This document shows positions 808-4,151 of a DNA stretch of 64,000 nt, piece after piece; the stretch's first letter is position 1, and each line of letters starts with the position of its first letter. The notes beneath the pieces were generated by a model. It was not told the DNA's origin. It did no database searches and saw nothing but the letters and a program-made list of their open reading frames with translations. The DNA is taken from the NCBI GenBank assembly GCA_965238175.1, contig CBDEGZ010000003.1, positions 1,088,001-1,152,000 of the forward strand, read 5' to 3'. This DNA comes from Gammaproteobacteria bacterium. Lineage in GTDB: Bacteria; Pseudomonadota; Gammaproteobacteria; CAJXQU01. Position numbers and translations under genes: made by a program.

Positions 808-950
808 GTATAAATGAGCAAAAAGCATATCAAGCTTGCAGGATGGCGAGAGATTATAAGTAACCTGATGTGATGGTCTCCTCCCCCTAACGGCATCTAG
901 GTGCCATGATTGAACTGACATACACACAATCAAAAGAGGAGAAGACCAAA

Positions 951-1964
951 ATGAAGACTACAACAATCGGGTTAGACATAGCAAAAAACGTATTTCATGC
1001 TGTCTGCTGTAATCAACAAGGGCGTATAATCAAAAAGAAAATGTTAAAGCGAGCGCAGGTACTCTCCTTTTTTCAATCTCAACCTCCTTGTTTAGTCGCA
1101 ATAGAATCTTGTGCAACGTCACAGTATTGGGCCCGAGCGATACAACAACAGGGACATCAGGTGAAATTACTACCACCTCAGCATGTTAACGCATTTCTAA
1201 TCGGCAATAAGAATGATTATAACGATGCCTTGGCCATCGCCGTTGCTGCGAAACAACCTCATTTAAAAAGTGTGGGCATTAAATCAGTTGAGCAACAAGA
1301 CAACCAGGCACAACATAAAGCAAGAGACTTAGCGGTCAGACAAAGAACCGCATTATGTAACCAAATGAGAGCGCTTGTTGCAGAATATGGCATTAGCCTT
1401 CGTCCCGGCCTAAATACCCTACGTCAATCTATCCCGTTGCTATTAAGTGATGAGAACGAACGGTTGTCCGTTACTTTCAAAAGGATACTGCGCCAGCTAA
1501 AGGAACAATGGCAATCACTTGATGCCTGTATTGCGACATTTGACCAATTGATCATTCAATCGGCAAAAAACAATGCGATTTGCCAACGCTTACAAACTAT
1601 TCCAGGGTTTGGGCCGATGGTCTCGAGCGCGTATTTTAATGAAGTGGGAAACGGCGCTCATTATCACAAAGGGCGCGATGTGTCCGCCTCATTAGGACTT
1701 GTTCCACGACAGTACAGTAGTGGTGGTAAAGAGGTGCTACTGGGGATCAGTAAACGCGGCAATAAATACCTTCGTTGTTTGTTAATTCTAGGCGCGAAGG
1801 CCGTGGTATCAAGAGCCAAAACGAAAGGCGATAAACTGAGTCAATGGATTAATCGTTTAGTTGAGACGCGGGGGCATAATCGAGCGTGTGTGGCGTATGC
1901 CAACAAAATGGCAAGAATGGCCTGGGCTATAACGGTTTCTGGTGATGACTACTCACCGGCCTAA
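951..1964 (+). CDS. IS110-family DEDD transposase/recombinase
   Basis: IGLDIAK, AIESC and KNDYNDA (DEDD RuvC-like) motifs, TIPGFG, and GLVPRQYSSGGK with the catalytic Ser. RBS GAGGAG precedes the ATG at 951. Confidence 0.95.
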   Translation: MKTTTIGLDIAKNVFHAVCCNQQGRIIKKKMLKRAQVLSFFQSQPPCLVAIESCATSQYWARAIQQQGHQVKLLPPQHVNAFLIGNKNDYNDALAIAVAAKQPHLKSVGIKSVEQQDNQAQHKARDLAVRQRTALCNQMRALVAEYGISLRPGLNTLRQSIPLLLSDENERLSVTFKRILRQLKEQWQSLDACIATFDQLIIQSAKNNAICQRLQTIPGFGPMVSSAYFNEVGNGAHYHKGRDVSASLGLVPRQYSSGGKEVLLGISKRGNKYLRCLLILGAKAVVSRAKTKGDKLSQWINRLVETRGHNRACVAYANKMARMAWAITVSGDDYSPA

Positions 1965-1984
1965 ATAGAGAGAACAAATCATTT

Positions 1985-2165
1985 CAACGAATTGCGAAGG
2001 TAAAACTAAAGATGGCATAACAGGTCAAACCAGCCTATTGAAAACCTGTCGAGCTCAGGGGTAACTAATACCGATAACCTGATAAGGAAAATAGGCGCGT
2101 AATACATCCAGGTCAGAAGTTGAAAACTTCATTGAAGGCCGTATATATGACAGCAATCCTGTCCC
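1985..2165 (+). ncRNA. Putative seekRNA/bridge RNA of the IS1111 element (ends approximate)
   Basis: The 3' non-coding region has the IS1111-like scaffold (GATGGC..ACAGGTC..CC ... GGTCAGAAGTT-AACTTC..GGCCGTATATATGACAGCAA) and segments matching the target and the donor junction. Confidence 0.75.
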
Positions 2166-2299
2166 TGTTATCTGAATGTTTTATCTTGCAATACGGGAGG
2201 AGACCATATATGAACTCGGGATAAGAAAATGAACCAAAGGCCCATTCTCCGATCAGATCAATTGCTACCAAACAGTTGAGAAAAAAGGAGAACAAGCCA

Positions 2300-3238
2300 A
2301 TGTATAAATTAGTTGAAATCTTTTGTGATGTCGATGATAAGGTGAATGCCGAAGGCAGAGAGAATACCCTGGGGTATTTTTGTCAACACTTCATGCCGTT
2401 GTGGGAACAACAATTATTGACCGATGGCAAACGTCAACGTCGTCGAGTTGGACGAATGCAGGCCAGCGAAATCATAACAATTATTATTCTGTTTCATCAC
2501 TCCAACCATCGTGACTTCAAGAACTATTACAAAGGTTTTGTGGCTCAATTCTATGCAAAGGACTTTCCCGAGATACTAAGCTACACGCGCTTTCTAGAGG
2601 TAATGCCGACGGTGCTTGTTCCTTTATGCAGCTACTTTTCTTATCTCAAAGGTAAACCCACTGGCGTTGCGTTTATCGATTCAACCGCCTTAAAAGTGTG
2701 CCACAATCTGCGTATTCCACGCCATCGTGTTTTCAAAGATATTGCTCAACGAGGTCGAGGCACCATGGGCTGGTTTTATGGCTTCAAATTGCACCTCATC
2801 ACCAATCACCAGGGGGATATTCTAGCCGCTAAAATCACACCTGGAAATGTCGATGACCGTCAGCCTGTTCCTGAACTCTGTGAAGCGATGAATGGCAAAC
2901 TATACGAGGATAAAGGCTATATCAGCCAAGCCTTATCGAGCGAATTGTTTGATAAAGGCGTTGAGTTGGTGACCAATGTCCGGAAAAACATGAAAGCAAG
3001 AGTCCTTTCATTATGGGACAGAGCCATGTTGAGTCGGCGTTTTATTATTGAAACGATCAATGACCAGTTGAAGAACATATCGCAAATAGAACATTCCAGA
3101 CACCGCTCTGTACATGGCTTTATGCTCAATCTCATCAGTGGATTAATTGCTTATTGTCTGAAAGATAATAAGCCTTCTTTGAATTTATCAGGGGATGATT
3201 TTGATTGTTTGAAACAGGCGTTGGTACCTATGGCTTAA
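2300..3238 (+). CDS. IS982-family DDE transposase carrying a 13-aa in-frame insertion
   Basis: FIDST, GWFYGFKLHL, DKGY and IETINDQLK motifs. RBS AGGAG precedes the ATG at 2300. Confidence 0.9.
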   Translation: MYKLVEIFCDVDDKVNAEGRENTLGYFCQHFMPLWEQQLLTDGKRQRRRVGRMQASEIITIIILFHHSNHRDFKNYYKGFVAQFYAKDFPEILSYTRFLEVMPTVLVPLCSYFSYLKGKPTGVAFIDSTALKVCHNLRIPRHRVFKDIAQRGRGTMGWFYGFKLHLITNHQGDILAAKITPGNVDDRQPVPELCEAMNGKLYEDKGYISQALSSELFDKGVELVTNVRKNMKARVLSLWDRAMLSRRFIIETINDQLKNISQIEHSRHRSVHGFMLNLISGLIAYCLKDNKPSLNLSGDDFDCLKQALVPMA

Positions 3239-3289
3239 ACCGATCTGGGGTTATTTACACCTTAATATCTGATTTTATTAGCTATTTCG

Positions 3290-4151
3290 TGGGGATTGGT
3301 CAGTGTCAGTACCTATTATTATCAATGCCGACAGAAACCGATTAATCATGAAGAACGTATCATGATGAAATCAATCAAAACCATTGCTGTTGAGACAAAC
3401 TACTCATACGGTAAATGACGCATGCATGCGTCGCTATTGAATACAGGTTTTTCTGTTGGTGCCTATATCGAGCTGCCACGTTGATGAAAAAAGCAAACGT
3501 TTTTGCCATTACGCCTCGAAAAAGACATTATTGTCCAAGTACTGGCAAACCTCATATCAAAGCAGAAAATATTCTTGAACGTCAATTTTATCCGAAAACA
3601 ATCAACACTCACCGGGTGGGTGATATTACTTATGTTCGCACACATCAGGGTTGGAGTTATCTCGCTTGTGTTCTAGATTTAGGCTCAAAAGAAATTGTGG
3701 GTTGGGTAATGTCTAAACACCCCAATGCGACCTTAGCAAAGGAAGCATTAAACCATGCCATTCGAAGATAACAGCCTGACACGAGCAATTACTTTTTCAT
3801 TCAGATCAGAGGGTGCAGTATTCTGCCAATGTGTTTGTTGATTATCTTAACCAATTAAATATCACTCAAAGCATGAGTCGAAGGGGAAATTGTCTTGAGA
3901 GCTTGCCTCACGAAGTGTTTTGGGGATAATGCCGTCACTGAGCGATTCTTCCGTAGTTTGAAATCAGAGCGAGTGAACTGTCGTTGTTATCAAACGAGAA
4001 GTCAGGGAATAGCCGATATCATTGATTATATCGAACCGTTTTATAATTAAGAACGACGACATTATAAACTAGGAAATATTTCATCTGTTGAATATGAACA
4101 GGAATTACTAAAAAGTGCCTAATAGATCTCCAAGGTTAGTTAACCATTACA
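3290..4151 (+). pseudogene. IS3-family transposase OrfB remnant with right end
   Basis: GDITYVRT..GWSYLACVLDL, HSD, SMSRRGNC..DNA..ERFFRSLKSE motifs are broken by stops and frameshifts. The right end ...GTTAGTTAACCATTACA finishes in CA at 4151. Confidence 0.88.

Follow-up and report, generated by a model that had tools for sequence, protein, structure and literature searches.

RNA-guided recombinases of the IS110/IS1111 insertion sequences (IS) are under development as genome-insertion tools. The closest described systems to the locus studied here are four IS1111-family elements with seekRNAs, ISEc11, ISPa11, ISKpn4 and ISPst6 (Siddiquee et al. 2024, PMC11187229), and IS621, an IS110 element with a bridge RNA (Durrant et al. 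2024, PMC11208160). The locus lies in a 64,000-nucleotide stretch of a gammaproteobacterial genome (assembly GCA_965238175.1, contig CBDEGZ010000003.1, positions 1,088,001 to 1,152,000), which as a whole is called the window and to which all coordinates refer. The segment 866-2210 is a complete, recently active and ordinary IS1111-family insertion sequence, and it is proposed, with a probability of about 0.88, that its 3' non-coding region encodes a two-loop guide RNA of the seekRNA/bridge-RNA type.

The finding is the correct reading of a known system, as the mechanism was published in 2024. Its modest added value is a base-resolved guide map of a widespread IS1111 clade, with the edges of the guides taken from natural covariation in about 65 elements from many phyla that share one scaffold and nearly identical ends. 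From the comparison comes further, if not decisive, evidence for a reading of the donor junction by the second half of the long RNA. The element moreover exemplifies an IS that has settled at the tips of other IS and puts up with one fixed mismatch of its guide at the majority of its sites. The clade may already be covered by Supplementary Figs 6-9 of PMC11187229 (folds of long RNAs) or by Supplementary Table 5 of PMC11208160 (bridge-RNA predictions for elements in ISfinder).

The left junction of the element reads ...GTAACC/TGATGTG-ATGGTCTCC (861-885), with GTAACC at 860-865 followed by TGATGTG and the repeat ATGGTCTCCTCCC, and the right junction reads GGAGACCAT-ATA/TG/AACTCGGG (2199-2220). 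The uninterrupted site TAACCTGAACTCGG was found elsewhere in the genome (2 exact, 11 within one mismatch), and since these empty sites and the flanks of 24 copies fix the boundaries, the element was assigned to 866-2210 with extensions of 7 bp on the left and 3 bp on the right, which is the rule for IS1111 (PMC11187229). The letters given for target and junction in a preliminary description of this DNA agree with both junctions, except that the core is the dinucleotide TG and not TG(A). From the stop codon (1964) to the right end (2210) there are 246 non-coding nt, compared to 85 nt (866-950) before the ATG at 951. The IS1111 features present are thus a DEDD domain, PF02371 with the S(t)G motif, subterminal inverted repeats (sTIR) with extensions, a long 3' non-coding region, and insertion that is specific for site and orientation and leaves no target duplication.

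In the longest open reading frame (ORF; 906-1964), Pfam detected PF01548 (DEDD_Tnp_IS110, E = 3.6e-16) and PF02371 (E = 6.4e-20). The NCBIfam model NF033542, 'IS110 family RNA-guided transposase', matched the 337-aa form end to end with 302.9 bits against a cutoff of 140, the start of the model aligning to residue 5. Residues D24, E67, D104 and D107 (352-aa numbering) were unchanged in 51 of 51 aligned relatives, an alignment from which locus L108 (10 stops) was left out. The protein carries the motif GLVPRQYSSG, in which S272 (352-aa ORF) was S in 47 relatives and T in 4 and the following G was kept in 50 of 51; an S(t)G pattern has been described for IS1111 transposases (PMC11187229). The 120 C-terminal residues aligned to the structures of IS621 (8wt6; E = 2e-4) and ISCro4, and the S272 motif, GL-P----SG, aligned with the serine region of IS621, GLTPRRYESG. 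The DEDD/Ser recombinase is intact, as had been proposed in the preliminary description.

The window element, which is known from sequence alone and was likened to the four IS1111 elements by description, shares with them a recombinase of about 340 aa that has both the DEDD residues and the GL-P----S(t)G motif, sTIRs of 11-13 bp with 7-bp and 3-bp extensions, a long stretch of non-coding DNA downstream of tnp, the order of the guides, their overlap at the insertion point, and a junction promoter, which in the window element is a predicted one (PMC11187229). A further trait in common is natural retargeting between relatives about 72% identical. Their long seekRNA measures 145-170 nt compared to about 150-160 nt in the window element, in which the first loop with its stems matches the short seekRNA form of 70-100 nt (PMC11187229). 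The differences are the target, TAACC/TG/AACTCG, and the donor-type loop with its own pair of segments that was resolved here, whereas PMC11187229 assigned no role to the long RNA.

With IS621 the window element shares a target loop and a probable donor loop, and within them the left and right target guides (LTG, RTG) and candidates for the left and right donor guides (LDG, RDG), each including the core dinucleotide, as well as a DEDD RuvC-like domain with a Ser-bearing C-terminal domain (PMC11208160). Unlike in IS621, the RNA lies 3' and not 5' of the gene, the order of the guides is reversed within each loop, a hairpin is inserted between the guides of each loop, the sTIRs are long, and the proteins match by sequence only in the C-terminal region given above. 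The core of IS621 is CT, whereas that of the window element is TG (CG in many relatives).

Target guides and the RNA fold

A scan of one genome per species gave 472 relatives, of which the best 80 were kept. The closest among these 80 had 72-78% protein identity and came from Colwellia, Shewanella, Halioglobus, Pseudoalteromonas and Paraglaciecola. Plasmids searched with the element gave only distant IS110-family matches, all of them enterobacterial. Recognizable sTIRs on both sides, with the end design YGATGNN-ATGGTCTCC...GGAGACCAT-ATA-YG, were present at 64 of the 80 loci, and this shared design makes the elements comparable base for base. Together with the window element, a set of 65 elements with 60 distinct non-coding regions was obtained, and 52 of these regions were used for the RNA alignment after exclusion of L101 (internal deletion) and the near-duplicates L079, L127, L102, L104, L087, L135 and L124. 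Covariation between guides and flanks was scored in the 47 of these 52 elements that had at least 10 nt of flank on each side (leaving out L061, L088, L109, L126 and L137).

Each guide column was scored against the flank of its own element and compared with 1000 shuffled pairings. For the bottom-strand guide, the columns for -5 to -1 (78-82) matched in 37, 40, 43, 43 and 46 of 47 elements, where shuffling gave 14-16, and the neighbouring columns (-6 to -8, +1 to +3) were at shuffled expectation. For the top-strand guide, the columns for +6 to +1 and -1 (49-54 and 57) matched in 37, 33, 40, 45, 45, 41 and 37 elements, compared to 15-28 after shuffling, and +7, +8 and -2 were at expectation. The totals were 263 (shuffled, 126 +/- 8.8) and 333 (shuffled, 205 +/- 8.9), respectively, and neither was reached by any of the 1000 shuffles.

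The edges of this covariation are sharp and coincide with the conserved positions of the 24 insertion sites in the host genome, and they define the programmable windows as 2075-2081 (5 + 2 nt) and 2050-2058 (1 + 2 + 6 nt), which overlap on C-TG. In the terms used for bridge RNAs (PMC11208160), these are the LTG and the RTG. Their order is that of the published IS1111 seekRNAs, which have the complement of the top strand 5' of the segment that matches the bottom strand (PMC11187229). The preliminary description had proposed four guide strings, CGAGCTCAGG (2050-2059), TAACCTGA (2075-2082), ACATC (2104-2108) and ATATATGA (2143-2150), all of which are found at these positions. Its pairing of two target guides with both target strands is borne out by the covariation, and its extents hold except for one base of each target guide, G2059, which does not covary, and A2082, which is a fixed base of the scaffold.

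Among close relatives the scaffold is nearly constant, and two short blocks change along with the flanks. L062 and L064 (the latter from Colwellia maritima) carry ATAACCTCA together with CGATCTG or CGAGCTG and are inserted at ...AGATC/TG/AGGTTAA and ...CGAGC/TG/AGGTTAA; L063 carries GCGATCTCAG and is located before TG/AGATCG, and L067 and L068 carry TATACCCAT and are located before TG/GGTATA. In all five, both guides are altered. Natural retargeting is therefore visible among relatives 72-78% identical, like the natural reprogramming reported for ISEc11 and ISXne4 (PMC11187229). It was also found that L061, L065, L070, L108 and L131 (Colwellia, Shewanella, Paraglaciecola and Pseudoalteromonas; L065 is from Shewanella frigidimarina) have the same or nearly the same target guides, of the TAACC-TG-AACTCG type. 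Marine gammaproteobacteria may thus have this target, which is probably an IS tip, in common.

For the 52 non-coding regions, RNAalifold predicted a consensus fold of 31 pairs (table 1). In an independent count, 97.4% of the cells were paired and 19 of the 31 pairs showed compensatory changes; none of 500 shuffles was as good, and partners slid out of register paired in 33-40%. The consensus was used because neither single-sequence fold shows the loops properly: the minimum free energy (MFE) fold of 2020-2160 alone had z = -0.78, with 43 of 200 shuffles as good, and the fold of the whole non-coding region had z = -2.81 with the loops poorly shown. A terminator-like hairpin at 2149-2163 was rejected, as it is not kept in relatives and its 3' arm is part of P1.

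A covariance model built from the 52 rows scored 156.7 bits at 2008-2183, its sole match in the window, and found full-length matches in relatives outside the model down to 34-40% protein identity. The left-out matches include four at this level of identity, one of them in a further species of the genus to which the host belongs, and two on plasmids of enterobacteria. Weaker second matches, away from the match at the recombinase gene, were seen at L035:1218-1400 (-) and L121:992-1163 (+), with 69 and 39 bits; these could be further elements or orphan RNA modules. A point against the RNA is that Rfam 15 gave no match at E up to 1 over 700-2400, and it appears that Rfam has no family that detects the candidate RNA.

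The left-out matches served as a held-out test, for which 15 of 19 could be used, the right end being unreadable for L071, L131, L139 and the second match in L035. In 9 of the 15, the window of 11-13 nt placed by the model holds an exact complement of at least 7 nt to the element's own core and right flank. The mean complement was 6.6 nt, compared to 3.1 +/- 0.36 nt after shuffling, with a maximum of 4.6 in 2000 shuffles. On this comparative evidence, the guide-flank covariation and the 15 held-out elements, the target guides are proven to be real. The preliminary description had named a covariance model from homologs and the covariation of guides with flanking targets as its check; the covariation was present in the 47 elements, and the model found the RNA in relatives left out of it.

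In the window element taken alone, the matches could more easily be ascribed to chance in an AT-rich non-coding tail that holds no RNA guide. Dinucleotide shuffles of 1965-2190 gave an 8-mer equal to the target top strand including the core in 90 of 5000 cases, an 8-mer equal to the junction top strand in 137 of 5000, and a bottom-strand match of at least 9/10 in 60 of 3000, which makes three of the four segments only modestly unlikely by chance. Core-containing bottom-strand matches of 5 nt appeared in 3372 of 5000 shuffles, placing ACATC by itself at chance level. Certainty on the guides therefore comes from the comparison with relatives and not from the window element alone. Chance is nevertheless a negligible explanation in view of the covariation in 47 relatives, which exceeds every shuffle, the agreement of the 15 left-out elements, and a fold conserved with compensatory changes.

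Covariation by itself does not separate RNA from single-stranded DNA of the same strand, and the conserved region might act as DNA in transposition, either single-stranded or as a protein-binding site. This is very improbable, since G-U pairs are frequent and strand-specific (for example, 16 G-U at columns 13-181 and 18 U-G at columns 38-93), and for four IS1111 elements RNA from the homologous region was sequenced in its transposase-bound form (PMC11187229). Because the G-U pairs fit the + strand only, the structure of the guide RNA was assigned to that strand.

Table 1. Features of the IS1111-family element, its proposed guide RNA and the adjoining target and neighbour, in window coordinates
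Feature	Coordinates	Strand	Basis or remark
IS1111-family insertion sequence, 1,345 bp	866-2210	+	left TG counted in, as in Siddiquee et al.; flanks of 24 copies and empty sites
Left target half TAACC, -5 to -1	861-865	+	read by bottom-strand guide; positions covary with guide columns 78-82 in relatives
Left terminal extension TGATGTG, 7 bp	866-872	+	first two bases are the TG core
Left sTIR ATGGTCTCCTCCC	873-885	+	perfect 13-bp repeat with 2195-2207
Recombinase gene, 337 aa from ATG 951	951-1964	+	AGGAG at 936-940; longest ORF from 906 (352 aa)
Predicted bridge/seek RNA, about 150-160 nt, two loops	2011-2171	+	RNAalifold consensus of 52 sequences
P0, outer stem, closes the two loops together with P1	2011-2016/2166-2171	+	6 further pairs, 89% paired, rich in G-U
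P1	2020-2024/2158-2162	+	consensus fold
Target-binding loop (loop 1)	2033-2096	+	consensus fold, compensatory changes
P2, closes target loop together with P3	2033-2040/2089-2096	+	6 of 8 pairs with compensatory change
P3	2045-2047/2085-2087	+	consensus fold
Top-strand target guide CGAGCUCAG (RTG-like)	2050-2058	+	pairs with target -1, TG core and +1 to +6
P4, hairpin between the two target guides	2060-2063/2069-2072	+	4 of 4 pairs with compensatory change
Bottom-strand target guide UAACCUG (LTG-like)	2075-2081	+	equals top strand -5 to -1 plus TG core
Second, donor-type loop (loop 2)	2097-2154	+	P6 and P7 between two 12-nt strands
P5, closes second loop	2097-2098/2153-2154	+	consensus fold
Candidate top-strand donor guide UACAUC (RDG-like)	2103-2108	+	can pair with G-ATGT-G of left end: core G and bases 3-7, one G-U
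P6	2111-2114/2137-2140	+	consensus fold
P7, hairpin	2116-2120/2126-2130	+	5 of 5 pairs with compensatory change
Candidate bottom-strand donor guide AUAUAUG (LDG-like)	2143-2149	+	equals last 5 bases of right end plus TG core
TTGCAA, -35-like hexamer	2186-2191	+	on circularization 17 nt upstream of TATGAT (2209-2210 joined to 866-869)
Right sTIR GGGAGGAGACCAT	2195-2207	+	perfect 13-bp repeat with 873-885
Right terminal extension ATA, 3 bp	2208-2210	+	read from sequence; same layout in relatives
Target core TG and right half AACTCG (+1 to +6)	2211-2218	+	own sites
Neighbouring IS982-family element, outer tip supplies target	2213-3250	+	ORF 2276-3238: NCBIfam NF033520 271 bits, Pfam PF13612

The second loop and the donor junction

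Both loops have the same build, with a hairpin between two strands of 12 nt each, and AUAUAUG in loop 2 lies in the same register within its strand as UAACCUG in loop 1. The core base of AUAUAUG, T or C, agreed with that of the target guide in 51 of 52 relatives, though these positions do not pair with each other; agreement with the core of the right flank was seen in 47 of 52, and with that of the left end in 42 of 52. On the best protein tree (a quick tree, with internal stops in five rows written as X), this donor-type core changes state about 9-10 times. In addition, column 108, the second base of UACAUC, varies together with base 6 of the left end (A:T in 37, T:A in 13, 2 exceptions among 52). 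In L109, L080 and L108 the complementarity to the element's own left end is perfect over 7 nt, and L090, with a TA core, has the matching U. In view of these comparisons, it is likely that the second loop reads the donor junction.

Several observations weigh against this assignment. The donor ends are almost invariant in the clade, and support for the donor guides is therefore weaker than for the target guides. Column 108 and base 6 changed only 3 times on the tree, and L130 and L117 break the base-6 rule. The independent pairs on well-supported branches numbered 2 in the case of the core and 1 in that of base 6, too few for sign tests to reach significance. UACAUC forms 5 Watson-Crick pairs and one G-U and is by itself not separable from chance. 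In nine relatives the left-end core is TG, as opposed to CG in the right flank and in all guides. Lastly, an 82-nt short seekRNA was sufficient for transposition of ISEc11 (PMC11187229).

Most of these observations also speak for a rival reading in which the RNA reads the target only, with 2097-2154 serving as scaffold, as a processing or protein-binding module or as part of a precursor, and with the recombinase reading the ends via the sTIRs; the likeness of AUAUAUG and UACAUC to the junction would then not reflect pairing. The 82-nt RNA of ISEc11 holds the target matches and is not the whole long RNA, and the roles of the long RNA and of end binding were left open in that report (PMC11187229). 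A target-only RNA is possible but rather unlikely, given the core bases that switch together in both loops, the 6-7-nt complements that track their own left ends in four relatives, and a second loop with the geometry and register of the first. Moreover, for 93% of the IS1111 elements in ISfinder Durrant et al. predicted a bridge RNA in the right end, and they reported donor-complementary nucleotides in a multi-loop of IS1111 bridge RNAs (PMC11208160). The donor guides of the preliminary description accordingly have provisional support: their position, loop geometry and core behaviour fit, while the independent changes are few and its ACATC is at chance level.

We lean slightly towards the stronger view that in this clade the 'long seekRNA' has, as its 3' half, a genuine loop for donor binding that copies the target loop, in which case the elements would be fully bispecific bridge systems, and not target-only with the ends read by protein and sTIRs. 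If this is true, the fixed C-A mismatch at +2 (see below) and the nine core-discordant relatives would mean that one core-proximal mismatch is routinely tolerated.

The nine TG/CG elements (L100, L119, L112, L123, L093, L103, L122, L125 and L132) come mostly from Desulfuromonadales-type genomes. Their donor top-strand segment is AUCAUUG or UUCAUCA, and the pattern is steady across different insertion sites. These elements may bear on which strand's core survives recombination, or on the tolerance of core mismatches.

The anatomy of the element, its copies and their sites, the conserved fold and the covariation of guides and targets were observed, whereas transcription of the RNA, its binding by the recombinase, the function of loop 2 and a circular form of the element are inferred. 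If the element behaves like ISEc11 and IS621, it would leave as a circle, and the joined ends would give a candidate junction promoter, TTGCAA-17 nt-TATGAT, which would drive both the recombinase gene and the RNA. Junction promoters have been described for the IS1111 family (PMC11187229), and the sequence CTTGC-AA is almost unchanging among the relatives. Loop 1, its guides separated by the small hairpin, would specify the insertion site, with UAACCUG pairing with the bottom strand across -5 to -1 and the core. In loop 2, UACAUC and AUAUAUG would pair with both strands of the joined ends, ...CCATATA-TG-ATGTGATGG..., and the RNA-loaded DEDD/Ser recombinase would exchange strands at the TG core. 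The proposal in the preliminary description that the element is a candidate for genome engineering is no truer for it than for hundreds of relatives.

Copies, insertion sites and neighbouring sequences

The host genome (3.35 Mb, 40% G+C) contains 25 copies of the element, of which 22 are identical, 2 have one substitution and 1 is cut by a contig start. One substitution, in copy G000:C3:747418-748764, is A to G at the equivalent of 2136, just 5' of the 3' strand of P6; the other, in copy 393961, is C to T within tnp, at the equivalent of 1589. The 24 full-length copies are at 24 distinct places, with no duplication beyond the shared TG. On the left, T, A, A, C and C were found at -5 to -1 in 23, 24, 24, 24 and 24 of the 24 sites. 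On the right, +1 was A in all 24, +2 was A in 19 and G in 3, +3 was C in 16, +4 was T in 22, +5 was C in 17 and +6 was G in 14. The preferred site is thus TAACC/TG/AACTCG, with TG as the shared core. Upstream of TAACC, T, A and A were enriched at -9 to -7 (17, 21 and 15 of 24). The guide columns for these positions show no covariation in relatives, and the enrichment is probably due to shared ancestry of the target tips or to the site preference of the neighbouring elements themselves.

Two observations at these sites weigh against the target guides as read here. At +2, 19 of the 24 sites have an A opposite C2054 of the top-strand guide and only 3 have the predicted G, and the sole perfect site found for both target guides, TAACCTGAGCTCGG (G000:C3:393936), is unoccupied. 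Since C2054 is present in every copy, the expansion of the element took place with the mismatch at +2. L061, L065 and L131 have U at the equivalent of C2054, which would match perfectly. Near TAACCTGAGCTCGG (G000:C3:393936-393975), a copy of the element lies 10 bp away in opposite orientation, in a palindromic arrangement of two target-like half-sites.

The right flanks were repeated 6-67 times in the genome for 17 of the 24 copies, and 18 of the 24 left flanks were single-copy, indicating that the element sits at the outer tip of other insertion sequences, which is mostly its target. The right flank of the window copy, the tip of an IS982-family element, occurs 6 times in the genome. According to the title of a 2003 paper by Partridge and Hall, IS4321 and IS5075, which belong to the IS1111 family, reportedly insert into the terminal inverted repeats of mobile elements. 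By description, their hosts are Tn21-family transposons, whereas the tips used here belong to IS982-family and other IS.

The neighbouring IS982-family element has target-like tips at both ends, TAACC-TG-AACTCGG and, on the other strand, TAACC-CC-AGATCGG. Further downstream in the window (3415-4100) lies the remnant of an IS3-type transposase, with a match to the rve integrase core in ORF 3415-3771 and a frame broken by stops beyond it. It was also observed that contig C1 of the assembly (10,967 bp) has a G+C content of 55.8%, compared to 40.4% for the chromosome, and may be a foreign replicon or contamination.

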